Below, in pieces: positions 35,917 through 52,000 of a DNA stretch of 64,000 nucleotides. The stretch lies in sequence record PZ445523.1. The stretch is one strand, 5' to 3'. Position numbers and translations under genes: made by a program. How positions within the stretch are numbered: the first letter of the stretch is position 1; every line of letters starts with the position of its first letter. The notes below the pieces were generated by a model. It was not told where the DNA came from and ran no database searches. It saw nothing but the letters and a program-made list of their open reading frames with translations. The DNA comes from a phage.

Positions 35917-37504
<1,588 letters not shown>

Positions 37505-37513
37505 AATAAAATG

Positions 37514-37527
37514 GGCCTTGCGGCCCA
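37514..37527 (-). terminator. hairpin between nrdB and denA
   Basis: GGGCC-GCAA-GGCCC then AUUUUAUU. Confidence 0.45.
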
Positions 37528-37531
37528 CTCC

Positions 37532-38710
37532 TTAAAAGTATTTTTTAAAACTCATCATAACTTTATCATCAACATCATTATCAATCTGTGCAACAAGGTA
37601 AGATGACAGTTCTACTTCTTGTGGCGCGGATTGAACATTATCAGAATTAAGATATTCACGAATCCAAGGATATGGATGTTTAACCGGAGCATCGGTAATT
37701 GGGCATGGAAGACCACACTGCTTCATACGAGATACAGTTAAGTAATCAATAAAGCTCCACATGCTATTTGTATTTAATCCAGGAACATCGCCATCTTTAA
37801 ATAAATGAACTGCCCAATCTTTTTCTTGGCGGTTAACTTCCATGAAAATATCAACTGCTTCTTGCTCACACTCTTGAGCAATTTTAACCCATTCATCGCC
37901 ATCAGTGCCAAGTTGAAGTTGACGAATAATATATTGAGTGCCTTTAAGGTGAAGCTGTTCATCACGTGCAATGAACTTCATAATCTTGGCATTACCTTCC
38001 ATGATTTCCATATTCTTATGAAAGTTAAAGGTACATGCAAAAGATACATAAAAACGAATAGCTTCCAATGCGTTGATTACATGAAGGCAAAGATAAAGAG
38101 ATTTCATTAGTGCTCGTTTAGCTTCGGCTTCTTGTTTAATAGCTCGATTTAAACGAAAATCAGCATCAGGAGATTCTTTAGCTAGTTCTACAAATTCTTT
38201 AGCATTTTCCCATTCACGAGTTTTAATCAGAACATCATCATAATAACGTCCAATGGATTCAGCACGTTTCATAATAGCTTCATCTAGTACAATCTCATCA
38301 AATACCTTTGACGGATCAGTATAAAGATTTCGCATGATATGTGTATATGAACGGCTGTGAATAGTTTCACTAAAAGTCCACGTAGCAACCCATGTATCAA
38401 GGCTCGGGTCTGAAATTAATGACATAAGTACAGCAGACGGCGCACGACCCTGAATGCTATCCAAAAGCGATTGATACTTCAGATTATTAGTAAAAATATT
38501 TTGCTGATACTGAGGAAGCTTATTAAACTGTGCAGCATCCATCATTAAGTTTACTTCTTCGGGACGCCAGAAAAATGACAATTGCTTTTCGGTCAAATCT
38601 TCAAAAACTTTATGGCGTTGAATATCATAACGTGCAATACCAAGACCTGAACCAAAAAACATAGGTTCTTTTAAAACATCAACTGGATTTGTATTAAAAA
38701 CTGTGCTCAT
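37532..38710 (-). CDS. nrdB: ribonucleotide reductase small subunit, uninterrupted
   Basis: 392-aa contiguous ORF with di-iron/tyrosyl radical region; no intron. Confidence 0.92.
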   Translation of the reverse strand: MSTVFNTNPVDVLKEPMFFGSGLGIARYDIQRHKVFEDLTEKQLSFFWRPEEVNLMMDAAQFNKLPQYQQNIFTNNLKYQSLLDSIQGRAPSAVLMSLISDPSLDTWVATWTFSETIHSRSYTHIMRNLYTDPSKVFDEIVLDEAIMKRAESIGRYYDDVLIKTREWENAKEFVELAKESPDADFRLNRAIKQEAEAKRALMKSLYLCLHVINALEAIRFYVSFACTFNFHKNMEIMEGNAKIMKFIARDEQLHLKGTQYIIRQLQLGTDGDEWVKIAQECEQEAVDIFMEVNRQEKDWAVHLFKDGDVPGLNTNSMWSFIDYLTVSRMKQCGLPCPITDAPVKHPYPWIREYLNSDNVQSAPQEVELSSYLVAQIDNDVDDKVMMSFKKYF

Positions 38711-38761
38711 AAATTTTCCACTTAGTTAATAGTTGGTGAATCGTCCGTGAGTCAAATTATA

Positions 38762-41026
38762 TCATAATTTACAGGATGAACAATCTTCAGCTTTTGGAGT
38801 TTCTATTTCATAATCATCAGTACCAGAACCATCGCGGGTATTATGATAATAGAAATTTTTTCCGCCAAAATACCAAAAATACAAAAGGTCATCAATCATT
38901 ATTGACATTGGAACCTTTCCTTTTGGAAAAATCTGCGGGTCATAGTATGTATTCGTTGAAGCTGATTGACACACCCATTTCAGCATAATAGCTACCTGCG
39001 TAAGATAAGGTTTATTACCTTTCTTAGCTAATTTCCACGTATAATCATATAGGTCTATGTTATGCTCAATATTGGGCACGACTTGATTAAAGGAGCCCTC
39101 TTTTGATTCTTTAACAGAGACTGGTCCACGTGGAGGCTCGATACCGTTTGTACTGTTAGAAACTTGGGAAGATGACTCACATGGCATAAGTGCTGATAAT
39201 GTGCTATTACGGATGCCAAAGAGCTTAAGGTCTTCCCGCAGCGACGACCAGTCACAAACGTATTTTGGAGCTGCGATTTGGTCAATCTTTTTATTGTACC
39301 AGTCGATAGGTAATTCGCCTCGAGACCAACGAGTGTCTGAATAATATTCGCAAGGTCCTTTTTCTTTGGCGAGCTTAATGGATGCTTTAATGAGTCCATA
39401 CTGTAATCTCTCAAATAGTTCATGTGTTAAATCGTTAGCATCTTCATAAGAAGCAAAGTTACTTGCCAGCCAAGCTGCATAGTTGGTAACACCTACACCG
39501 AGGTTACGACGCTTTTTGGCTTTTTCTGCTTCAGGAACCGGATATCCTTGGTAATCCAAAAGATTATCAAGAGCACGAACTTGGACTTCTGCCAATTCAT
39601 TAATTTTATCTTGGTCTTGCCAATCAAAGTTATCCAGCACAAATGCTGATAACGTGCACAATCCAATTTCAGCATCAGGGCTATTCACATCATTTGTTGG
39701 AATAGCAATTTCACAGCACAAGTTACTCTGACGAATAGGTGCCTTTTCACGAATAAACGGAGTGTAGTTATTCGTATTATCAATGAACTGCACATAAATC
39801 CTTGCTGTTCCTGAACGTTCAGTCATGAGCAATTCAAATAGTTCACGAGCTTTAATACGCTTTTTACGAATATTAGGGTCTTTTTCTGCTGCTTCGTATA
39901 ATTCACGGAAACGGTCTTGGTCTTTAAAATAAGAATAATAAAGCTCTCCACCCATTTCATGTGGACTGAACAAAGTAATGTAATCGTTCTTTCCAAAACG
40001 TTCCATCATTAGGTCATTCAGTTGAACACCATAATCCATATGACGGATACGGTTTTCTTCTACACCTTTGTTATTTTTCAAAACGAGAAGATTTTCAACT
40101 TCCAAATGCCAAATAGGATAATAAGCAGTTGCAGCGCCGCCACGAATTCCGCCCTGTGAACATGATTTAACAGCAGTCTGAAAATGTTTCCAAAAAGGAA
40201 TAACCCCAGTATGGCGTACTTCACCCATGCCAATCTTAGAACCTTCGGCACGAATCATACCAACGTTAATACCAATTCCAGCGCGTTTAGAGATATATTC
40301 AACAATCGAAGCGGAAGCCTTATTGATAGACTTCAGCGAATCACCTGCCTCAATAACAACACATGAACTAAACTGTCGAGTCGGAGTACGACAACCAGCC
40401 ATAATAGGAGTTGGTAATGAAATCTGTCGAGTAGATACTGCTTCATAAAAACTAATAACATGTTTTAATCTATCAACAGGTTCATCTTGATGCAATGCCA
40501 TTCCAATAGTCATAAATGCAAACTGCGGAGTTTCATAAATTTGACCAGTGGTTTTATCTTTAACTAGATATTTTTCTTTTAATTGCATCGCCCCGGAATA
40601 AGTAAATTCCATATCCCGTTCGTGCTTAATTTTTGATTCTAAAAATGTAATTTCTTCTGCTGAATATTTTGACAATAATTCAGGGTCATATTTACCTTCA
40701 TTTACACAATAAGAAATATGGTCAATAAATGAACGTGGTTCATACTGTCCATAAACATGCTTACGAAGAGCAAACATTAAACAGCGTGCAGCTACATATT
40801 GATAATCAGGCTCTTCAACTGAAATAGAATTCGCAGCAGCCTTAATGACAATAGTCTGAATATCATCAGTTGTCATTCCATCACGGAGATAAGATTTAAT
40901 ATTTTCATATAATTCATAAGGATCTACTGATGTTCCTTCAGCTGCCCAAGATAAAACTTTAATAATTTTTTGCGGGTCAAAGCTCTGAGAAACACCACTA
41001 CTTTTGATAACATTAATTAATTGCAT
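38762..41026 (-). CDS. nrdA: ribonucleotide reductase large subunit
   Basis: 754-aa ORF with active-site NLCCEIA. Confidence 0.92.
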   Translation of the reverse strand: MQLINVIKSSGVSQSFDPQKIIKVLSWAAEGTSVDPYELYENIKSYLRDGMTTDDIQTIVIKAAANSISVEEPDYQYVAARCLMFALRKHVYGQYEPRSFIDHISYCVNEGKYDPELLSKYSAEEITFLESKIKHERDMEFTYSGAMQLKEKYLVKDKTTGQIYETPQFAFMTIGMALHQDEPVDRLKHVISFYEAVSTRQISLPTPIMAGCRTPTRQFSSCVVIEAGDSLKSINKASASIVEYISKRAGIGINVGMIRAEGSKIGMGEVRHTGVIPFWKHFQTAVKSCSQGGIRGGAATAYYPIWHLEVENLLVLKNNKGVEENRIRHMDYGVQLNDLMMERFGKNDYITLFSPHEMGGELYYSYFKDQDRFRELYEAAEKDPNIRKKRIKARELFELLMTERSGTARIYVQFIDNTNNYTPFIREKAPIRQSNLCCEIAIPTNDVNSPDAEIGLCTLSAFVLDNFDWQDQDKINELAEVQVRALDNLLDYQGYPVPEAEKAKKRRNLGVGVTNYAAWLASNFASYEDANDLTHELFERLQYGLIKASIKLAKEKGPCEYYSDTRWSRGELPIDWYNKKIDQIAAPKYVCDWSSLREDLKLFGIRNSTLSALMPCESSSQVSNSTNGIEPPRGPVSVKESKEGSFNQVVPNIEHNIDLYDYTWKLAKKGNKPYLTQVAIMLKWVCQSASTNTYYDPQIFPKGKVPMSIMIDDLLYFWYFGGKNFYYHNTRDGSGTDDYEIETPKAEDCSSCKL

Positions 41027-41343
41027 AAGTCCTCAACTTGAAAATCGTCTTTAAACAATCGGTTAACTATATGAGCTATTATATCACCATGACACGGCTT
41101 TGGTTTACATGTGCATCCTAGCCTCATTCCACGTAAAGGCTCTAAATGTGCTTTAGTTATTTCTCCGGATTTAATTCGACGTATAAAATCTTTTTTGAAT
41201 AATTCAATGGCAGCCTCCCGGCTGCCAGCATCTTTACCGACGTAATTTCCCCAAAATGTACCGCGGTGAATATTAACATCAAAGTCGGATTTATATTTAT
41301 TCACTACCTGGCATAGACGGCCCGCGTGGTGATAATTCGTCAT
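41017..41343 (-). CDS. hypothetical protein (nrdA.1 position)
   Basis: 108-aa ORF. Confidence 0.5.
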
Positions 41344-41572
41344 ATTGTTTTTCCGTTAAAACAGTAATATCATAGTAACAATCAGAAGAAGTTTTAACTG
41401 TAGAAATTTTATTATCAAAATACTCACGAGTCATTTTATGAGTATAATATTTTTTGCCATAAATGATAATAGGCTGATTTGGTCCTGGAACTTCTAGCTC
41501 ACTTGGATTAGGAAGTGTAAAAAGAACTACACCAGAAGTATCTTTAAATCGTAAAATCATATATCCTCGCAA
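41297..41572 (-). CDS. hypothetical protein (nrdA.2 position)
   Basis: 91-aa ORF. Confidence 0.45.
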
Positions 41573-41580
41573 TAATAAAA

Positions 41581-42441
41581 TTACACCGCCATCTTTCCTT
41601 TAATTGGCGGGTGAGATACATAGTTGTTAAGAACAAAATTATGCGGCTTTGCGAATTGACTCAACCAAAATACCTGCGATTCTGTGTTCCATTCATCAAA
41701 TTCATCTGGAAATTTTAATTGTAATTCGCATAAATCCATAGGTTCACGACGCAAAATTTCTTTACATTGTTCTACGTGATTCATATAGATATGAGTATTA
41801 CCACCAGAAAATATCAAATCTCCAGGAATAAGATTACACATCTTAGCTACAATATGAACTAACGTAGCATATGATGCAATATTAAATGGAAGACCGAGGA
41901 AAACATCTACCGAACGTTGATACCACTGCAAATCCAAATAGCCGTTACGCACATTAAACTGATAGAACATATGACAAGGCGGTAATGCCATCTGCTTGAG
42001 TTCAGCTGGATTCCATGCAGAAACAATTTGACGCCTATCATTTGGCAATTTTTTAATACGATCAACAACTTCTATAATTTGGTCTACACCGCCAAAATCG
42101 CGCCATTGTTTTCCATAAATTGGACCAAGTTCACCGCTATGGTATCCTAAATCTTTTGCTTGATTTTCGTAATTTTCATCCCAGACTGTTTTGCCTTGAA
42201 TTAATGAATCATGTTGAATTAATCGTAAATCATTGACATTTGTGCTTCCCGATAAAAACCATATTAGCTCAGCAATGCAAGCTTTCCAGGCGAGCTTCTT
42301 AGTTGTTACTGCAGGAAAACCTTTAGTTAAATCCCAGCGTAATTTAGTACCGAACAAAGCAATTGTTCCTGTGCCCGTTCTGTCATCGGTTTCATAGCCA
42401 TTTTCAAAAATGTCTTTAATTAAATCTTGGTATTGTTTCAT
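41581..42441 (-). CDS. td: thymidylate synthase, uninterrupted
   Basis: 286-aa contiguous ORF with PPCHMFYQF active-site motif; no intron. Confidence 0.92.
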
Positions 42442-42486
42442 TTAGTACCTTATATAAATTATAATACATTTTATGAAGCTAAATAA

Positions 42487-42846
42487 TCAATACGGTTTAG
42501 CATCAAATTTTCTCTCAATTTCAGGCGTGAAATATAATTCTTTACCGCGTTTGGAAAAGCGACCAATAATATGATAATTATTCTCATCAAACGTAATATT
42601 ACCAATATCCATAGCTTTCAACCAAATATCGATATTTCTATCCAGCTTTATGTCAAAATTCCAATACGGAGAACTATTACCGAAAATACTGCAAGCAGAT
42701 TCAGTGAAACAACTGCTATAAATCTTGTCTTTAGGAACTACTAATTGATAGACACCTTTAATAAACTGAGGACCCTGCCATTTAGGTTGTTTCACGTCTT
42801 TTTCTAATAGAATAGGGTAATAATTAAAATTCATATTTTCCGCCAC
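42487..42846 (-). CDS. hypothetical protein inserted between frd and td
   Basis: ORF starts at GTG 42846 (119 aa) or ATG 42834 (115 aa); no motif recognised; absent from the T4 frd-td junction. Confidence 0.5.
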   Translation of the reverse strand: MAENMNFNYYPILLEKDVKQPKWQGPQFIKGVYQLVVPKDKIYSSCFTESACSIFGNSSPYWNFDIKLDRNIDIWLKAMDIGNITFDENNYHIIGRFSKRGKELYFTPEIERKFDAKPY

Positions 42847-42854
42847 GCGTTATT

Positions 42855-43677
<823 letters not shown>

Positions 43678-43693
<16 letters not shown>

Positions 43694-44037
43694 TGAAAAG
43701 AGTCATGAGCATATCCGCTAGCGTCAATCATTTTAACTAAAGTTACCATTCCTCTGTTAACTGCTTGCGCGATTTCATCAAAAACTTCGTCACTATCATC
43801 GTAAAGATCATTAAAAAGTTCTAACACGTTCTTCTGAACTTTTAATTTACGGCCGACAATTTCGCCTACAGTAAATTCGTTTCCGCCAAATCCAGCGTAA
43901 AATGTAATTACACCCATTAACTGGCTTTCACGGGAATCTATGTCGTGTGATAAATTAATAAAAGCCGTCCCAGGCGCGGTTTTAAGTTGGCAACGAATTT
44001 TTACTTGGGTAATTCCAGTTATATGAATGTTAGACAT
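43678..44037 (-). CDS. hypothetical protein (frd.2 position)
   Basis: 119-aa ORF. Confidence 0.5.
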
Positions 44038-44047
44038 AATATTTTCC

Positions 44048-44290
44048 TCAGACAGACTTTTTCACAATTTTCCAATCAGCTTTAAACTGCTCGACGTCAG
44101 AATGGTAAATCCAGAATCCTGCGCTTTCTCCGTCTTCATAAAGAGGACATCCATCGCATTCATCTTCCCATCCCATATCACGTAAAAGATGTTCAGCTTT
44201 TTCAACAAGTTCAGAATCTTTACCGATGATATTAAAATACCATTTACCTCTAACTTCCGAATCTTTAATGCTCTGACGTTGTAATCTCAT
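44048..44290 (-). CDS. hypothetical protein (frd.3 position)
   Basis: 80-aa ORF with GGAG RBS. Confidence 0.5.
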   Translation of the reverse strand: MRLQRQSIKDSEVRGKWYFNIIGKDSELVEKAEHLLRDMGWEDECDGCPLYEDGESAGFWIYHSDVEQFKADWKIVKKSV

Positions 44291-44399
44291 TTTATTCTCC
44301 TTAGCAAGCTTTAATCAAAAGATATAAACAAACCAACATAACTGCTGCCATAATATAAGGTGCGAACATTTTCTTTTCTCCATTAGTTTTGATAGGGTA

Positions 44400-44429
44400 A
44401 TAGTATCACACTACTACCCTGTTGTAAAC
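44400..44429 (-). promoter_or_regulatory. early-type promoter upstream of frd.3-position ORF
   Basis: GTTTAC, 18-nt spacer, TGATACTAT. Confidence 0.45.
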
Positions 44430-44815
44430 TACTTTTTGAAAGTTTTTCGCAAAAGTTCAATGATTTCATCTGCATTGTTTTCATCTACAATGCAGTGAAT
44501 TTTTGTTACACCAGAAACCTTGTCTTTAACTTCATCCTCTTCAGAAGTCGGTTCTTTATATTCGCGGAAACAATAAAACTCTTCTTCACTAAGTTCAAAA
44601 TAATCATCACCCATACCATCATCATTATAGATTTCACCATTAGCACAAATGATTTCGGTTACATAATCAAATCCATCTAAACTTGATATTGATTTAACTT
44701 CAAACCAACCACCATTTTCTTGAATGATGCCGACCATACTAGCATTTGATGAACTAATATCAATGAAAGATTTAATACGATGTGGATTTAACTCGTATTT
44801 TTTGCCGATTTCCAT
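44429..44815 (-). CDS. hypothetical acidic protein
   Basis: 128 aa from ATG 44815 with GAGGAAA RBS (track gives 133 aa). Confidence 0.45.
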   Translation of the reverse strand: MEIGKKYELNPHRIKSFIDISSSNASMVGIIQENGGWFEVKSISSLDGFDYVTEIICANGEIYNDDGMGDDYFELSEEEFYCFREYKEPTSEEDEVKDKVSGVTKIHCIVDENNADEIIELLRKTFKK

Positions 44816-44860
44816 TTTGATTTTCCTCATTTTAATAGGGGCTTGATAGCCCCTTGATAA

Positions 44861-45090
44861 TTATTGTTCAATCAGTCCCATGTAAAATTCTGCGTCTTCA
44901 GCATCCATACCGTCGCAGTATTCATTAGCCATAAAGCGGGTGAGGTCTTCAAGAGGACCTTCAATAACGATTTGAATACTCCAAAACTTAGAATCTTGCA
45001 CGCTTGTAATACTAAGTTCAGGATAACGATTACGAATAATCTCTTCAATATATTCAAAATCAACAATATCAATATCAACTTTAGCCATAT
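44861..45090 (-). CDS. hypothetical acidic protein
   Basis: 75 aa from [10 protein letters not shown] with AAAGAGGAAAA RBS; track N-terminal extension overlaps promoter. Confidence 0.45.
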
Positions 45091-45131
45091 TATTTTCCTC
45101 TTTAATTATTAGCAGTATTGTCGATAGTTGT

Positions 45132-45161
45132 ATAGTACCATGGAAGGACAAGGATGTAAAC
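45132..45161 (-). promoter_or_regulatory. early promoter downstream of the gene 32 terminator
   Basis: GTTTAC, 18-nt spacer, TGGTACTAT. Confidence 0.5.
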
Positions 45162-45192
45162 AGTTTTGTGAAAAAATTTTTGAAATAAAAAA

Positions 45193-45211
45193 GGGGACCT
45201 CTAGGGTCCCC
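45193..45211 (-). terminator. intrinsic terminator after gene 32
   Basis: GGGGACC-CTAGA-GGTCCCC followed by TTTTTTATTT on minus strand. Confidence 0.65.
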
Positions 45212-45233
45212 AATTAATTAGTAATATAATCTA

Positions 45234-46139
45234 TTAAAGGTCATTCAAAAGGTCATCCAGGTCCGTGTCATCAGCACTAGATGAACTGCCAGAGCTTGAG
45301 CTCATAAAATCATCTTCAGTTTTTGTATTGAAGTCATCAACATTGAATGCATCCAAATCATCAGCAACTTTATCAGCTTTCTTAGCAGCAGTTGCAGCGG
45401 CACCGCCCATCACAGCAGTTCCCATAACTTGACTGAACTTAGTGCTCAGTTCTTCAAACGATTTGAATTTATCTTTAGAAGTCATTTCAGAAAGGTCAAC
45501 CATTTGTTCGAACAGTTCTTTCTGGAAAGATTCATCGTCAATGTTTGGAATCGCAGATTGATTTAGGAATTTAGATTCATCGTAGTTACTAAATCCAGAA
45601 ACTTGTTTAACTTTCAGTACAAAGTTAGCACCTTCCCACGGACAAGTTACATCAACTGGAGTTTCACCCATTTCAACATCAACCGCAATCATCGCGTTGA
45701 TTTTATCCCAGATTTTCTTACCGAAACGATATTTAAATACTTTACCTTCATTTTCTGGAGCAGCTGGGTCTTTTACAACAAGAATATTAGCCCAGTAAGA
45801 AGTTTTACGTTTAACAAGATTGTACTCTTTATTGTCAGTGTTGTACAGATCATTTTTACTGATGTATTGACATACTGGGCAAGAATCGTAATCACCATGG
45901 GTAGATGAACATGTTTCAATATACCATTTACCATTTTTCTTGAAACCGTGATTTACAAGAATTGCGAATGGTGCTTGTTCATCATTTTTAGACGGAAGAA
46001 AACGAATTACTGCTTGACCGTTACCCGCATTATCGAGTTTCAGTTTCCACTCGCCTTTATCTTCAGAAGAAAAACCTTTATTGCCATTCAGTTTAGCCAT
46101 TTGTGCAGCAAGTTCAGCAGTAGATTTACGTTTAAACAT
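45234..46139 (-). CDS. 32: single-stranded DNA-binding protein gp32
   Basis: 301-aa [26 protein letters not shown]...; zinc site C..H..C..C; acidic C-terminus. Confidence 0.95.
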
Positions 46140-46200
46140 TTTATTTCCTTTTTAATTTAATTTAATTAACAGTTGGTGCTATGACACTTTACCTCATAGC
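46140..46200 (-). promoter_or_regulatory. gene 32 translational operator (pseudoknot plus AU-rich UUAAA repeats)
   Basis: minus strand reads GCUAUGAGGUAAAGUGUCAUAGCACCAACUGUUAAUUAAAUUAAAUUAAAAAGGAAAUAAA-AUG; inverted repeat GCUAUGA/UCAUAGC forms stem 1. Confidence 0.7.
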
Positions 46201-46826
46201 TGGCATAATTCGCAATACTCTGGGTCTTCGAGAGGTATCCAACCTGAGTTGAAATACTTTACCATCGATTTAGCAGTTGTATCAGTTATATTTATATTAC
46301 CTTTAACTCTTCGCCATCCAGGAGTTTTACCGTACAGATTAGAGGATAATAATAACACATAATTCTCGTAAGCGATATGAGATAATTTCCAAGACTCTAT
46401 ATTAGCTCGTGATGTTTTCCAAGGTCTAAAATCGTCACGGTTCATATAATTAGCCAATCTCATATGCTCTCTAACTTCCGGGTCTTTGGCTGGATGAGTT
46501 TCACCACTCACACCAAATCCACCACCAGCATATACCAGATTAAAATAGTCTGGATTATCTCTGGCATTTACTTCAAGTTGGTATTTTCGTTCTGCTTCAA
46601 TAACATCCAAGTCATCATCAATTTGAATTATTTTAACGCTCGGTTTTTGAAGCATTACCGCATTCAAAAATCTTTTTTGTTTACATGAGCTCCAGTATTC
46701 CTTTCCAGAAGAGTCATATATTATTCCGTTCTCAAATGAGCAATTTAATTTACTACCGATATAGTAGTATGGCGGAGTCTTATTTTTGACACGGTCTTCA
46801 AATGTAAACCAATATACTATATTCAT
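46194..46826 (-). CDS. segG: putative GIY-YIG (Seg-like) homing endonuclease at the T4 segG position
   Basis: 210-aa ORF between 59 and 32; N-terminus IVYWFTF...YYYIGSK resembles a degenerate GIY-YIG motif; stop lies inside the gene 32 leader. Confidence 0.45.
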   Translation of the reverse strand: MNIVYWFTFEDRVKNKTPPYYYIGSKLNCSFENGIIYDSSGKEYWSSCKQKRFLNAVMLQKPSVKIIQIDDDLDVIEAERKYQLEVNARDNPDYFNLVYAGGGFGVSGETHPAKDPEVREHMRLANYMNRDDFRPWKTSRANIESWKLSHIAYENYVLLLSSNLYGKTPGWRRVKGNINITDTTAKSMVKYFNSGWIPLEDPEYCELCQL

Positions 46827-46827
46827 A

Positions 46828-47481
46828 TCAATACTTGCAAGATTTCACAGTTTCAATGAAAACATTTTTAGCTTTCTGTGAATCAATATTTAAAATTTTT
46901 CTATAAGCCTTTAACTTTATAGAATAATTATTCCAGACTAAATTATCAGTCTGTTCATCATGTTTATCAATTATATTTAAAAATGAATCAAGCAAGATAA
47001 ACGTCTCAAACGAAATTATGTTCGATTGCAGAAGTTTAAAAATATAACTTGACTGAACCTTTGGATTATATTCAAAGATTTCTTTAAAAGCAGAAACTTC
47101 AACTTTTTTACTAAAATAGTAAATATTGCGAATATCTTCTTCAAACTTAAATTTAATTTGCTTCAAGCGTCCGATATATTCACGATAAAACACAAGTGCA
47201 TCAGCGTCAGAGATGTCGCCAATCCAAGCATCTTGGTTAGCAACCAAATTACTTATAAAGATTAAAGCAAGTTCCTTTAATTTATATTTTTCTGATAACT
47301 TCTGGAAAAAATACTTATCCCTTCGCTTTTGATAAGCGGCATCAGACACCCGCATGCACCAATTATACTTAATTACATCATACTTTCCATTCATATGTTG
47401 TTTTATCATTAAGTATAATTTATAAACTGATTTACCATCAATGTATCTTTCACCACCAGCAGGCATGCGGAGTTTAATCAT
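46828..47481 (-). CDS. 59: helicase loader gp59
   Basis: 217-aa ORF MIKLRMPAGGERYIDGKSVYKLY..., T4 gp59 size. Confidence 0.9.
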   Translation of the reverse strand: MIKLRMPAGGERYIDGKSVYKLYLMIKQHMNGKYDVIKYNWCMRVSDAAYQKRRDKYFFQKLSEKYKLKELALIFISNLVANQDAWIGDISDADALVFYREYIGRLKQIKFKFEEDIRNIYYFSKKVEVSAFKEIFEYNPKVQSSYIFKLLQSNIISFETFILLDSFLNIIDKHDEQTDNLVWNNYSIKLKAYRKILNIDSQKAKNVFIETVKSCKY

Positions 47482-47816
47482 AGTAGAAAATCTAATGTAT
47501 TAGTTTTTTCACAACGAACAACAGAAGGACGTAAAAGATTTTCGTCAATAGCTTCTGACTGAATTTTTTCAATTATACCCGAAGGAATAAATTTAGCAAA
47601 TTGAGTTTCAGGAATAGAGTTTTCTTCTAAGAATGCTGTCGTAGCTTCAAGATAACTCATTCCAAACTCTTCTACCATTTTTTCAATAATAAATCCATTT
47701 TCTTGACGATCAAGAAGCTTTGCTATTTCATCCTTTTCTTTCTTGATTGAAAGTTCTTTTTCTGAAAGACCGGTCTCATCGACCGGACGAATATCATTTA
47801 GAGAAAACTGTGTCAT
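47478..47816 (-). CDS. 33: late transcription co-activator gp33
   Basis: 112 aa from MTQFSLNDIRPVDETG... Confidence 0.85.
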   Translation of the reverse strand: MTQFSLNDIRPVDETGLSEKELSIKKEKDEIAKLLDRQENGFIIEKMVEEFGMSYLEATTAFLEENSIPETQFAKFIPSGIIEKIQSEAIDENLLRPSVVRCEKTNTLDFLL

Positions 47817-48063
47817 AAAGTTCAACTACCTCTTCGGTTTCAGCTTCAAACACATCACGGTTATCTTTATGATACAAAGCTAATAGACGATTAAACATCT
47901 TACCATCAACGCCAAGTTCATCTTTGGCACGAATTCGAATATCTTTAATCAGTTCATTATAACCGGAAATTTTCAGTTTATGATCAGATGCTTCTTTAAT
48001 AAATTTAGCCAAGTCTTCGCCGTGGATAGCTTCATCAAATTCAACCATTTCTTTTTTAGCCAT
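47794..48063 (-). CDS. dsbA: dsDNA-binding protein DsbA
   Basis: 89-aa ORF MAKKEMVEFDEAIHGEDLAKFIKEA..., overlaps gene 33 start. Confidence 0.85.
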   Translation of the reverse strand: MAKKEMVEFDEAIHGEDLAKFIKEASDHKLKISGYNELIKDIRIRAKDELGVDGKMFNRLLALYHKDNRDVFEAETEEVVELYDTVFSK

Positions 48064-48071
48064 TATTCACC

Positions 48072-48989
48072 TCAAAATTCATTAATGCTATTAGTTAATT
48101 TAGAAAGACCCGCTTTTACAAAATATGAATAAATTTTGCCACGCGGTGGTAATTTATATGAATTATAGTAATTCACAATGTTTGAAGCAATATTATCAGG
48201 AATATAATCAAAATCAATTAGAATTAAATTTTCTTTATAACGATTATATTCAGATTCGGTGAGAAGCACCTTAGCTTGCTCACGGTCATTAGCAATAGCT
48301 TCAACGATTGAAGTTTTCATTGAAGGAGTTCGTTCACCTTCAACTCTGGTAAACCAAAAGTCAGATCGTACTTTAACTGAAGCAACGTTATCCTTTTTGT
48401 CGCCTTTAAGGATTTTAGTCATACAGTCAATTTCAGCAGAACCGCTTTTAATTTTAACCCATTTCTTATGCATCGGAGACCATTGCTTAACATTTGGATA
48501 TTTGTGAAGCTGAGTAAAGTCACCATCAGATGAAATGATTAAAATCTTATGTCCTTCTAAGGAGAACTTTTTAACAAGAACAGCAATGTGGTCATCTGCT
48601 TCATACTTATCAATATCCATAACAATGTATGGCATATAAGCTTTCAATTCATCTATAACTTTATGGCTGGATTCAAAATAACCTTCCCAGTCCCAAGTAG
48701 ATTCTTCTCGTGCTTTTCCACGGTTTTTCTTGTAATAATAAGCGAAATCACGACGCCAGTATCCAGATTTCGCGTTATCAATACACAGCACAATTTTAGT
48801 GTATCCAAGCGTTTTTGCTTTTTTGACATTAAACTTAATTGAGTTCAATATCAAATGACGAACCATCGATAAATTAATTTTTTCTTTATCTGGGAAGTTT
48901 ACCAGAGCAGTTGAAAGAGCAATTTGACTAAAGTCAATTAAGCAAATTCCTTCTTTGTAGTCTTCATCCAGCATCATTTCTAAATCCAT
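48072..48989 (-). CDS. rnh: RNase H (5'-3' exonuclease / flap endonuclease)
   Basis: track start 49004 is TTG; ATG 48989 gives 305 aa MDLEMMLDEDYKEG... Confidence 0.9.
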   Translation of the reverse strand: MDLEMMLDEDYKEGICLIDFSQIALSTALVNFPDKEKINLSMVRHLILNSIKFNVKKAKTLGYTKIVLCIDNAKSGYWRRDFAYYYKKNRGKAREESTWDWEGYFESSHKVIDELKAYMPYIVMDIDKYEADDHIAVLVKKFSLEGHKILIISSDGDFTQLHKYPNVKQWSPMHKKWVKIKSGSAEIDCMTKILKGDKKDNVASVKVRSDFWFTRVEGERTPSMKTSIVEAIANDREQAKVLLTESEYNRYKENLILIDFDYIPDNIASNIVNYYNSYKLPPRGKIYSYFVKAGLSKLTNSINEF

Positions 48990-49018
48990 ATGAACCTCGT
49001 TCAATTAGTGAGATTTCT

Positions 49019-49048
49019 ATTATATACTATCTAAATCTTAAAGTAAAC
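49019..49048 (-). promoter_or_regulatory. early promoter for rnh
   Basis: GTTTAC, 18-nt spacer, perfect TATAAT, about 25-nt leader to rnh ATG. Confidence 0.55.
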
Positions 49049-49051
49049 AGG

Positions 49052-49059
49052 TATAAATA
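49052..49059 (+). promoter_or_regulatory. late promoter TATAAATA upstream of gene 34
   Basis: exact motif; overlaps the divergent rnh early promoter. Confidence 0.6.
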
Positions 49060-49093
49060 CTTATTATTGAAAACACAATAGGAGCCCGGGAGA

Positions 49094-52000
49094 ATGGCCG
49101 AGATTAAAAGAAAGTTCAGAGCAGAAGATGGTCTGGACGCAGGTGGCGATAAAATAATCAACGTAGCTTTAGCTGATCGTACCGTAGGAACTGACGGTGT
49201 TAACGTTGATTACTTAATTCAAGAAAACACAGTTCAGCAATATGATCCAACTCGTGGATATTTAAAAGATTTTGTAATCATTTATAATAATCGTTTTTGG
49301 GCAGCAACGGATAATATTCCAAAACCTGCTGGAAATTTTAATAGAATTCGTTGGAAAGCATTACGTACTGATGCTGTATATACAACCGTATCATCTGGAC
49401 CATATCAATTAAAATCCGGAGAAGCAATTTCAGTAGATACATCAGTTGGCAATGACATTGAATTTACTTTACCACCTTCTCCGCTTGATGGAGAAACCGT
49501 AATAATTCAAGATATCGGTGGAAAACCTGGCATAAATCAGGTTAAAATAAATTCTTCAAATCAGAGTATTGTCAATTTTAGAGGTGAACAGGTACGTTCA
49601 GTTTTAATGACTCATCCAAAGTCACAGATGGTATTCATTTTTAATAACCGTTTGTGGCAAATGTATGTTGCTGATTATAGCAGAGAAGCTGCAATTGTTA
49701 CTCCATCGACTGCATATCAAGCACAATCTAACGATTTTATCGTACGTAGATTTACTTCTGCCGCACCGATTAATGTTAAGCTTCCAAGATTTGCCAATCA
49801 TGGAGATATCATTAATTTCGTTGATTTAGATAAATTAAATCCACTTTATCATACAATTGTTACGACATATGATGAAACAACGTCAGTGCAAGAAGTTGGA
49901 ACTCATTCCATTGAAGGCCGTACATCGATTGACGGTTTCTTGATGTTTGATGATAATGAGAAATTGTGGAGATTGTTTGACGGGGATAGTAAAGCACGTT
50001 TACGCATTATAACAACTAATTCTAATATTCGTCCAAATGAAGAAGTCATGGTATTTGGCGCGAATAATGGAACAACCCAAACAATTGAACTTCAGCTTCC
50101 GACTGATATTTCTGTTGGTGATACTGTTAAAATTTCCATGAATTACATGAGAAAAGGACAAACAGTTAAAATCAAAGCTGCCGGTGAAGATAAAATTGCT
50201 TCTTCAGTTCAATTGCTGCAATTCCCAAAACGCTCAGAATATCCGCCTGAAGCTGAATGGGTAACAGTTCAAGAATTAGTTTTTAACGGTGAAACTAATT
50301 ATGTTCCAGTTTTACAACTTGCTTATATAGAAGATTCTGATGGAAAATACTGGGTTGTACAGCAAAACGTTCCAACTGTAGAAAGAGTAGACTCTTTAAA
50401 TGCTTCTACTAGAGCAAGATTAGGCGTAATTGCTTTAGCTACGCAAGCTCAAGCAAATGCTGATTTAGAAAATTCTCCACAAAAAGAATTGGCAATTACT
50501 CCAGAAACGTTAGCTAATCGTACTGCTACAGAAACTCGCAGAGGTATTGCAAGAATAGCAACTACTGCTCAAGTGAATCAGAACACCACATTCTCTTTTG
50601 CAGATGACCTTATCATCACTCCTAAAAAGCTGAATGAAAGAACTGCTACAGAAACTCGTAGAGGTGTCGCTGAAATTGCTACGCAGCAGGAAACTAATAC
50701 AGGTACTGATGATACTACAATCATCACTCCTAAAAAGCTTCAAGCCCGTCAAGGTTCTGAATCATTATCTGGTATTGTAACTTTTGTATCTACCGCAGGT
50801 GCTACTCCAGCTTCTAGTCGTGAATTAAATGGTACGAATGTTTATAATAAAAACACTAATAATTTAGTTGTTTCACCTAAAGCTTTGGATCAGTATAAAG
50901 CTACTCCAACGCAACAAGGCGCAGTAATTTTAGCAGTTGAAAGTGAAGTAATTGCTGGACAAAGCCAAGAAGGATGGGCAAATGCGGTTGTAACGCCAGA
51001 AACGTTACATAAAAAGACATCAACTGATGGAAGAATTGGTTTAATTGAAATTGCTACGCAAAGTGAAGTTAATACAGGAACTGACTATACTCGTGCAGTC
51101 ACTCCTAAAACTTTAAATGACCGTAGAGCAACTGAAAGTTTAAGTGGTATAGCTGAAATTGCTACACAAGTTGAATTCGACGCAGGCGTCGACGATACTC
51201 GTATCTCTACACCATTAAAAATTAAAACCAGATTTAATAGTACTGATCGTACTTCTGTTGTTGCTCTATCTGGATTAGTTGAATCAGGAACTCTCTGGGA
51301 CCATTATACCCTTAATATTCTTGAAGCAAATGAGACACAGCGTGGTACACTTCGTGTAGCTACACAAGTTGAAGCTGCTGCAGGAACATTAGATAATGTT
51401 TTAATAACTCCTAAAAAGCTTTTAGGTACTAAATCTACTGAAGCGCAAGAAGGTGTTATTAAAGTTGCAACTCAGTCTGAAACTGTGACTGGAACGTCAA
51501 CAAATACTGCTGTATCTCCAAAAAATTTAAAATGGATTGTGCAGAGTGAACCTACTTGGGCAGCAACTACTGCGATAAGGGGCTTTGTTAAAACTTCTTC
51601 TGGTTCAATTACATTCGTTGGTAATGATACGGTAGGTTCAACACAGCCATTAGAATCATATGAGAAAAATGGTTATGCAGTATCACCATATGAATTAAAT
51701 CGCGTATTAGCAAATTACTTGCCATTAAAAGCAAAAGCTGTAGATAGTAATTTATTAGATGGTCTAGATTCGCTCCAGTTCATTCGTAGGGACATTGCAC
51801 AAACAGTTAATGGTTCACTAACCTTAACCCAACAAACGAATCTGAGTGCCCCTCTTGTATCATCTAGTACTGCTACATTCGGTGGGTCAGTTTCAGCAAA
51901 TAGTACATTAACTATTTCTAATACTGGAACAGCAACTCGATTGATTTTTGAGAAAGGACCTCAAACTGGAACAAACCCGGCTCAAACGATGACTGTCAGA

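Follow-up and report, generated by a model that had tools for sequence, protein, structure and literature searches.

A three-state cassette site between frd and td in Tequatrovirus phages

The junction between the genes frd and td of Tequatrovirus is a polymorphic cassette site, found in three states. In the 64,000-nucleotide stretch of phage DNA analysed here (sequence record PZ445523.1, hereafter the window), it is occupied by ORF115, a gene for a 115-aa protein. A tblastn search with this protein gave 555 phage records and 555 places, that is one per genome; in 363 records, including T2, T6, RB14, RB18, RB32, AR1 and wV7, it was encoded at an amino acid identity of at least 90%. An unrelated 68-aa frame, ORF68 (phrog_9550), was present at the junction in about 135 records. 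The T4-type direct overlap of the two genes, counted with a 79-nt probe spanning the T4 junction, was found in 35 records, about half of which were re-deposits of T4. ORF115 accounted for about 68% of records, ORF68 for about 25% and the T4 ATGA overlap for about 7%. ORF115 is the majority allele of Tequatrovirus, and T4 is in an unusual, minority state.

The original prediction, made on the letters of the window, saw in this segment an accessory cassette dropped precisely into a translationally coupled junction. The site is indeed variable and the segment is an exact indel relative to T4, but as the majority allele it is not an unusual insertion, nor is it peculiar to this genome (363 records against 35 of the T4 type, with T2, T6, RB14 and RB32 among the carriers). 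The prediction had itself named what would speak against it, a conserved homologue at this very position in most T-even genomes, and this is what was found. ORF115 is an already known, annotated, lineage-typical accessory gene.

Layout and expression of the junction

Positions of the features are collected in Table 1. The arrangement read from the letters alone (end of frd, ATG-AAA-TAA, an open reading frame, a 45-bp spacer and td starting at 42441) held throughout, and comparison with T4 confirmed that frd and td overlap there by ATGA. In the window they are separated by 413 bp, which amounts to a net surplus of 417 bp over T4, whose genes overlap by 4 nt. Frd of the window shares 97.4% identity with T4 Frd. 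The gene ends with ...TATAAATGA, followed by ATG-AAA-TAA, which overlaps the frd stop because TAT AAA TGA continues into AAT AA. The td start reads ATGAAACAATAC, and downstream of td are nrdA.2, nrdA.1 and nrdA. No td intron sequence was found in the window, and Rfam gave 0 matches in 38000–46000.

Table 1. Features of the frd–td region of the window.
Feature	Position	Strand	Basis or remark
DUF7247 protein ORF	43678-44037	minus	
85-aa ORF, phrog_3183; stop overlaps frd start	43436-43693	minus	
frd (dihydrofolate reductase, 193 aa)	43436..42855	minus	ORF list; DHFR annotation in all matching records
Left copy of 12-nt direct repeat, TAAATGAAATAA	42861..42850	minus (coding strand)	repeat search
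frd stop TGA	42857..42855	minus	
ORF115 leader, CGCGTGGCGGAAAAT	42835..42849	minus	homologous to 3' coding tail of outgroup-contig frd
Shine-Dalgarno-like GGCGG, 5 nt upstream of ATG 42834	42844..42840	minus	
ORF115 (115-aa protein, phrog_1928)	42487..42834	minus	PHROG match, tblastn, dN/dS, alignments, AlphaFold
AT-rich spacer, 45 nt, containing TATTATAAT	42442..42486	minus	
Shine-Dalgarno AAGG for td	42451..42448	minus	
Right copy of 12-nt direct repeat, TAAATGAAACAA, includes td start codon	42444..42433	minus	repeat search
td (thymidylate synthase, 286 aa), intronless	41581..42441	minus	ORF list

Two candidate starts, GTG 42846 and ATG 42834, precede the stop at 42487, and the frame had accordingly been given as 115–119 aa. 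The frame exists, and the 115-aa start is the conserved one: ATG 42834 is the real start, because homologues all begin with MNFNYYP and because a 1-nt deletion in phage Lutter shifts the upstream GTG out of the ORF115 frame. The ATG at the frd stop, which is in frame with ORF115 in the window, was considered as a relic of a coupled start of ORF115 itself; this was rejected, since the same deletion in Lutter means that its frame relative to ORF115 is not conserved.

The T4-type junction, seen in T4, RB55, RB59 and Mosigvirus, has the same frd end (...ESVYK and stop) and the same td beginning (MKQYQ...) as the window. The window differs from it by the 417 additional bp, and td there is not coupled to frd, being preceded by a Shine-Dalgarno sequence of its own. 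The ORF68 cassette lies between exactly the same junction points as ORF115 and, like it, is part of a three-gene array in outgroup phages. Its protein is unrelated to ORF115, and unlike ORF115 in the window it is fully coupled, by ATGA with frd and by TAATG with td. ORF68 of Tequatrovirus (L002, 1343-1549) and of Dhakavirus (JS98, JS10; L004, 2143-2349) are 98.5% identical, and 43% identical homologues exist in phAPEC8-like phages, so that ORF68 may be more mobile than ORF115. The labels “DUF4858” and “flagellar biosynthesis protein” attached to ORF68 were not reproduced by Pfam or NCBIfam.

Upstream, between frd.1 (DUF5417, 44048-44290) and frd, the minus strand of the window carries two further small frames (the DUF7247 and phrog_3183 ORFs of Table 1). 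T4 has a 72-nt gap alone between frd.1 and frd, and is therefore reduced on both sides of frd.

As a consequence of this layout, td would be translationally uncoupled from frd and would rely on its own AAGG Shine-Dalgarno sequence. It may also be served by a promoter within the 45-nt spacer. A promoter scan found there a sigma-70-like site (TTGATT-18-TATTAT, 42490..42461), at a place where the authors of phage Lutter annotated a predicted promoter in the homologous DNA, and the spacer also holds a possible MotA-box-like TTAGCTTCA. As a candidate, the spacer promoter was not retained: promoter-like sites in the region (16, versus 12 +/− 3.7 in shuffled sequence) were not above chance, and the element is absent from phage F2, whose spacer is only 13 nt long. 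The same scan found neither a promoter-like site between frd and ORF115 nor a terminator after ORF115, the sole promoter-like site being downstream of ORF115 and facing td. A moron-like cassette with its own promoter was rejected on these grounds.

The ORF115 protein and its family

ORF115 matched the phrog_1928 profile with an E value of 1.6e-35, residues 8–115 aligning on profile positions 2–125 of 126. As judged by sequence comparison, it is a member of this family, which has no assigned function or structure and includes the hypothetical proteins ECML134_232, RB32ORF229c and BASEL bas42_0068; position and length are the same and no difference was seen. An identical sequence is deposited at NCBI as “hypothetical protein”, from 34 contigs. 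The ratio dN/dS was 0.016–0.09 in comparisons with T2, Lutter, F2 and a 63% identical relative, a pattern of substitution that marks ORF115 as a genuine gene.

In an alignment of 66 sequences, the conserved positions were L9, W19, G27, Y29, G91, F93, K95, G97 and F102. W19, G27, Y29 and the GRFxKxG hairpin, all present in ORF115, were invariant or at least 90% conserved. None of the conserved positions is a typical catalytic residue, and Pfam remained empty even at E values up to 10; the first reading, in which no catalytic motif had been recognised, was thus borne out. There was likewise no match in NCBIfam, in PADLOC (which covers defence proteins, not anti-defence proteins) or among PDB sequences, and no paralogue was found elsewhere in the window. 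Searched exhaustively with the profile, 1.84 billion representatives yielded only 50 clusters for a protein of the phrog_1928 type. Two long matches among them, P0062 and P0077, were spurious (repetitive low-complexity proteins); the others were all 39–148 aa long, nearly all of them 95–148 aa.

The AlphaFold model built on the 66-sequence alignment had a pLDDT of 91.8 and a pTM of 0.85. It contains strands at 6–12, 27–34, 38–41, 47–50, 62–64 and 80–82, a helix at 68–76, and a long hairpin formed by 86–96 and 99–104. This predicts a compact beta-barrel that includes one helix and faintly recalls an OB fold; OB-fold nucleic-acid-binding domains (RPA, SSB, S1, Teb1, HIN) are among the nearest systems with which it was compared. 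Structural matches in BFVD were uncharacterised T4-like phage proteins only. In the papers found, ORF115 is neither named nor characterised. It is one of many conserved T-even frames of unassigned function, and of slightly above-average interest for its strict linkage to frd across genera and for a confidently predicted fold that has no solved relative.

The annotation of the locus is uneven. The old T2 record AY310907 leaves the frd–td gap without annotation, and database labels of the cassette frames are inconsistent (L018, L019, L002 and MH809535, which is H147). The label “putative glucose-1-phosphate adenylyltransferase” in BW-1 was not reproduced by Pfam or NCBIfam.

Outside Tequatrovirus, frd is immediately followed by a phrog_1928 member in six or more genera of Tevenvirinae, and tandem paralogues are frequent. 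It lies directly 3' of frd and 5' of td in Jiaodavirus (Mineola), Kanagawavirus (CIP9, Q7622) and Roskildevirus (Cronus), and the same position was found in Moonvirus (KM16, CF1) and in Klebsiella phage Clarke_MM3. The six contigs examined, metagenomic or genomic, all have it between frd and td as well. Among the contexts covered by this positional test (the window, nine annotated phages from seven genera and the six contigs), phrog_1928 was never found outside the frd–td interval. To judge from these comparisons, phrog_1928 is an accessory family native to the interval directly after frd throughout Tevenvirinae.

In the outgroups, stop/start codon overlaps join every gene from frd through td. 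The tandem paralogue has the same motifs and belongs to the same PHROG as ORF115 (E = 8e-36 against phrog_1928), and some outgroup phages have a 68-aa frame as well. One contig, L014, contains the complete overlapped array frd-ORF115-paralogue-ORF69-td. Its identity to the window was 48.7% for frd, 78.3% for td and 63.5% for ORF115; to Kanagawavirus it was 61% for frd and 90% for td, but only 49–50% for ORF115. The ORF115 tree thus disagrees with the frd and td trees, which argues for lateral exchange of alleles at a fixed locus. A remnant of the paralogue was also sought in the 45-nt spacer of the window; the apparent match (“MLNRID”) was discarded, since the conserved C-terminus of ORF115 overlaps there and dictates it.

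Candidate roles of the protein

The invariant residues of ORF115 are aromatic, glycine and one lysine, and they cluster in the GRFxKxG hairpin. The protein may be a non-enzymatic binding module for a nucleic acid or a protein partner, and it would be made alongside the nucleotide-precursor enzymes. It is probably dispensable under laboratory conditions, because T4 is without the gene.

T-even genomes are rich in free-standing homing endonuclease genes, and insertions of this kind had been suggested to be often such genes or anti-defence genes. Records of the BASEL phages AndreasVesalius and WilhelmHis, and related ones, do label the protein “putative homing endonuclease”, and KGVYQL bears a superficial likeness to the GIY motif of I-TevI (SGIYQI). 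This resemblance was rejected, as it is not conserved in phrog_1928 and hhalign gave a probability of 0.7% against I-TevI; the value against MobE was 0.2%, and there was no Pfam match. Conserved YIG, Arg, Glu and HNH residues are absent across the 66 aligned members, and a single domain of 115 aa leaves no room for a DNA-binding domain. Like Seg, Mob and I-TevI, ORF115 is a small optional gene of variable presence between conserved genes. It differs from them in having no nuclease motifs, one fixed locus, another predicted fold and half their size. The prediction had also proposed looking for the gene in other genomic contexts as a sign of mobility; phrog_1928 was locus-bound, single-copy and between frd and td in every context inspected. 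With no profile support, a fixed locus, one copy per genome and a predicted beta-barrel, it is very improbable that ORF115 is a free-standing homing endonuclease or another self-mobile element. In two relatives (L016, 4202-4960; L024, 5249-5977), a GIY-YIG endonuclease gene lies between td and nrdA, on the opposite strand, so that true homing endonucleases do insert nearby, yet not in the frd–td interval.

ORF115 could instead be a putative anti-defence or host-takeover factor, acting by binding and neutralising some host component; an arms race would then be reflected in its variable presence, tandem paralogues and lateral exchange. Presence or absence does vary among close relatives, the gene is duplicated in tandem in several genera, and its alleles are laterally exchanged. 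The protein is small and without a catalytic motif, and the family is restricted to phages, with 50 cluster representatives among 1.84 billion proteins and no cellular homologues. Purifying selection is nevertheless very strong, and diversifying selection within Tequatrovirus was not seen. Known anti-defence islands do not typically have so rigid a place inside an operon, beside the gene of a metabolic enzyme, and the main text of the accessory-gene screens consulted mentions neither frd nor dihydrofolate reductase nor thymidylate synthase. We regard this role as unlikely, though not negligibly so. A position always between frd and td, with a start that coincides with the frd stop or lies inside it (overlaps of ATGA or more) in every lineage examined outside Tequatrovirus, would suit a partner, adaptor or regulator, of dihydrofolate reductase (DHFR) or of the T4-type dNTP-synthesising complex. 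Yet T4, Mosigvirus and the ORF68-type phages are without the gene and their Frd is 97% identical to that of the window; T4-like gene order is moreover generally conserved, so that linkage alone is weak evidence. Such a partnership is distinctly unlikely. A bolder proposal, to which we give little credence, is that phrog_1928 is a structurally new OB-like beta-barrel functionally tied to DHFR, either as an adaptor or regulator of the folate/dTMP branch of phage nucleotide synthesis or as a binder shielding this branch against a counter-measure of the host. If it were true, the tandem duplications and the exchange of alleles across genera would be marks of host-specific adaptation. T2 and T6 carry ORF115 by nature and T4 does not, which makes both knock-out and knock-in easy.

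Origin of the ORF115 allele and local mosaicism

The two repeat copies that flank the extra segment are identical at 11 of 12 positions, with a spacing of 417. The left copy contains the frd stop and the vestigial ATG-AAA-TAA, which corresponds to td codons 1–3 with CAA changed to TAA. The idea of a re-created td start was therefore right in that the left boundary copies the first three codons of td, with a stop at codon 3. The junction core TAAATGAAA occurs at both ends of the segment. It is found 11 times in the window, versus 2.5 expected, and represents a favoured gene-start context, so that the repeat could in part have arisen by convergence.

Next to the left copy, the ORF115 leader (TGGCGGAAAATATG) aligned with the frd tails of outgroup contigs (TGGTGAAAAGCGATG and TGGTGAAAAACGTG). 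This homology is short, about 15 nt, and overlaps the probable ribosome-binding site. In phage F2 (L003, 1062-1679), frd reads through the leader stretch and ends with ...GGKYEF, resembling the ...GEKREF end of frd in outgroup contig L015. In F2, a 2-nt difference abolishes the frd stop and results in a 12-residue C-terminal extension of Frd (KNEIATGGKYEF), which overlaps the ORF115 start by 11 nt.

We consider, with a probability of roughly 55%, that Tequatrovirus acquired the ORF115 allele through recombination with a related phage, a donor whose array frd-ORF115-paralogue-ORF68-td would have been fuller and overlapped throughout. On the left, the crossover would have taken place at the td start of an overlapped junction of the T4/Mosigvirus type, leaving the ATG-AAA-TAA relic and a fragment of the donor frd tail, and the right crossover inside td. 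Afterwards, the allele would have spread through homologous recombination. We infer the direction of the event from the copy of the td start in the repeat, the donor-like frd tail, the Mosigvirus junction (in this sister genus of Tequatrovirus, frd and td overlap directly, the core sequence is shared and the intron is absent) and the tree incongruence. Counting against an insertion, the state with the ORF predominates and extends to distant genera, and the same repeat permits a precise deletion.

This leads to the converse reading, in which frd-ORF115 is ancestral to Tevenvirinae and was inherited vertically by Tequatrovirus, and the T4-type phages and Mosigvirus lost the frame independently, by precise deletion between the TAAATGAAA(C/T)AA repeats; within Tequatrovirus, homing by I-TevI would then have spread the ORF-less junction along with the td intron through co-conversion. 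We find ancestral retention plausible, at less than even odds. It agrees with the majority state in Tequatrovirus and with the homologues that occupy this position in six or more further genera and whose divergence roughly tracks that of frd. The repeat is a perfect deletion substrate, the product being exactly the T4 sequence, and T4 also lacks the DUF7247 and 85-aa frames upstream of frd. All ten T4-type phages examined (T4, F1, HY03, SG1, FL18, ECO07P1, G2133, 112, G28 and JEP6) carry the td intron, against 94 of the 363 ORF115 carriers (about 26%, by a composite query). Since the records share ancestry, the association is suggestive and does not amount to a statistical test. This linkage to the intron, together with a distance of about 550 bp between the T4-type junction and the homing site, points to spread by co-conversion; intron homing may carry the ORF-less junction along. 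What retention leaves unexplained is the earlier origin, at the frd stop, of a 12-nt td-start copy with a stop at codon 3. It also requires the same deletion independently in Mosigvirus, and gives no account of why ORF115 of L014 resembles the Tequatrovirus version more than those of the phages with which L014 groups by frd and td.

Both readings make the event an old one: the footprint is also present in F2, whose dS to the window is about 0.9, and the event would be older than the split of the window's lineage from this phage. Both also imply that related phages exchanged DNA at one fixed locus, with no self-mobile element involved. The linkage also corrects the perspective on the textbook frd/td overlap, which is in the minority and goes together with the td intron. 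Together, the three-allele site and its intron linkage offer a natural system for cassette exchange and co-conversion in T-even phages.

Several observations concern the intron and its surroundings. In several T4-type phages, the td group I intron contains a degenerate 55-aa remnant of I-TevI. At about 41890–41915, the intronless td of the window reads TTCCTCGGTCTTCCATTTAAT, versus TTCTTGGGTCTACCGTTTAAT at the T4 exon junction, and these differences around the I-TevI homing site might alter the susceptibility of td to I-TevI. Phage FL18 is labelled Mosigvirus, and has a frd/td junction 96% identical to that of T4 and a degenerate td intron endonuclease; either its taxonomic label is wrong or the segment crossed between genera.

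Over the 14 kb of positions 36000–50000, the best deposited matches to the window were 96–97.6% identical and none was exact, so that the window represents a mosaic Tequatrovirus. Within 42300–43000, the 701-bp frd-ORF-td junction was 100% identical to that of Escherichia phage ECML-134, which differs from the window by a td intron with I-TevI and by other frames upstream of frd. The identity of these 701 bp between differing flanks therefore points to a sharp local mosaic and to recent recombination close to the junction.
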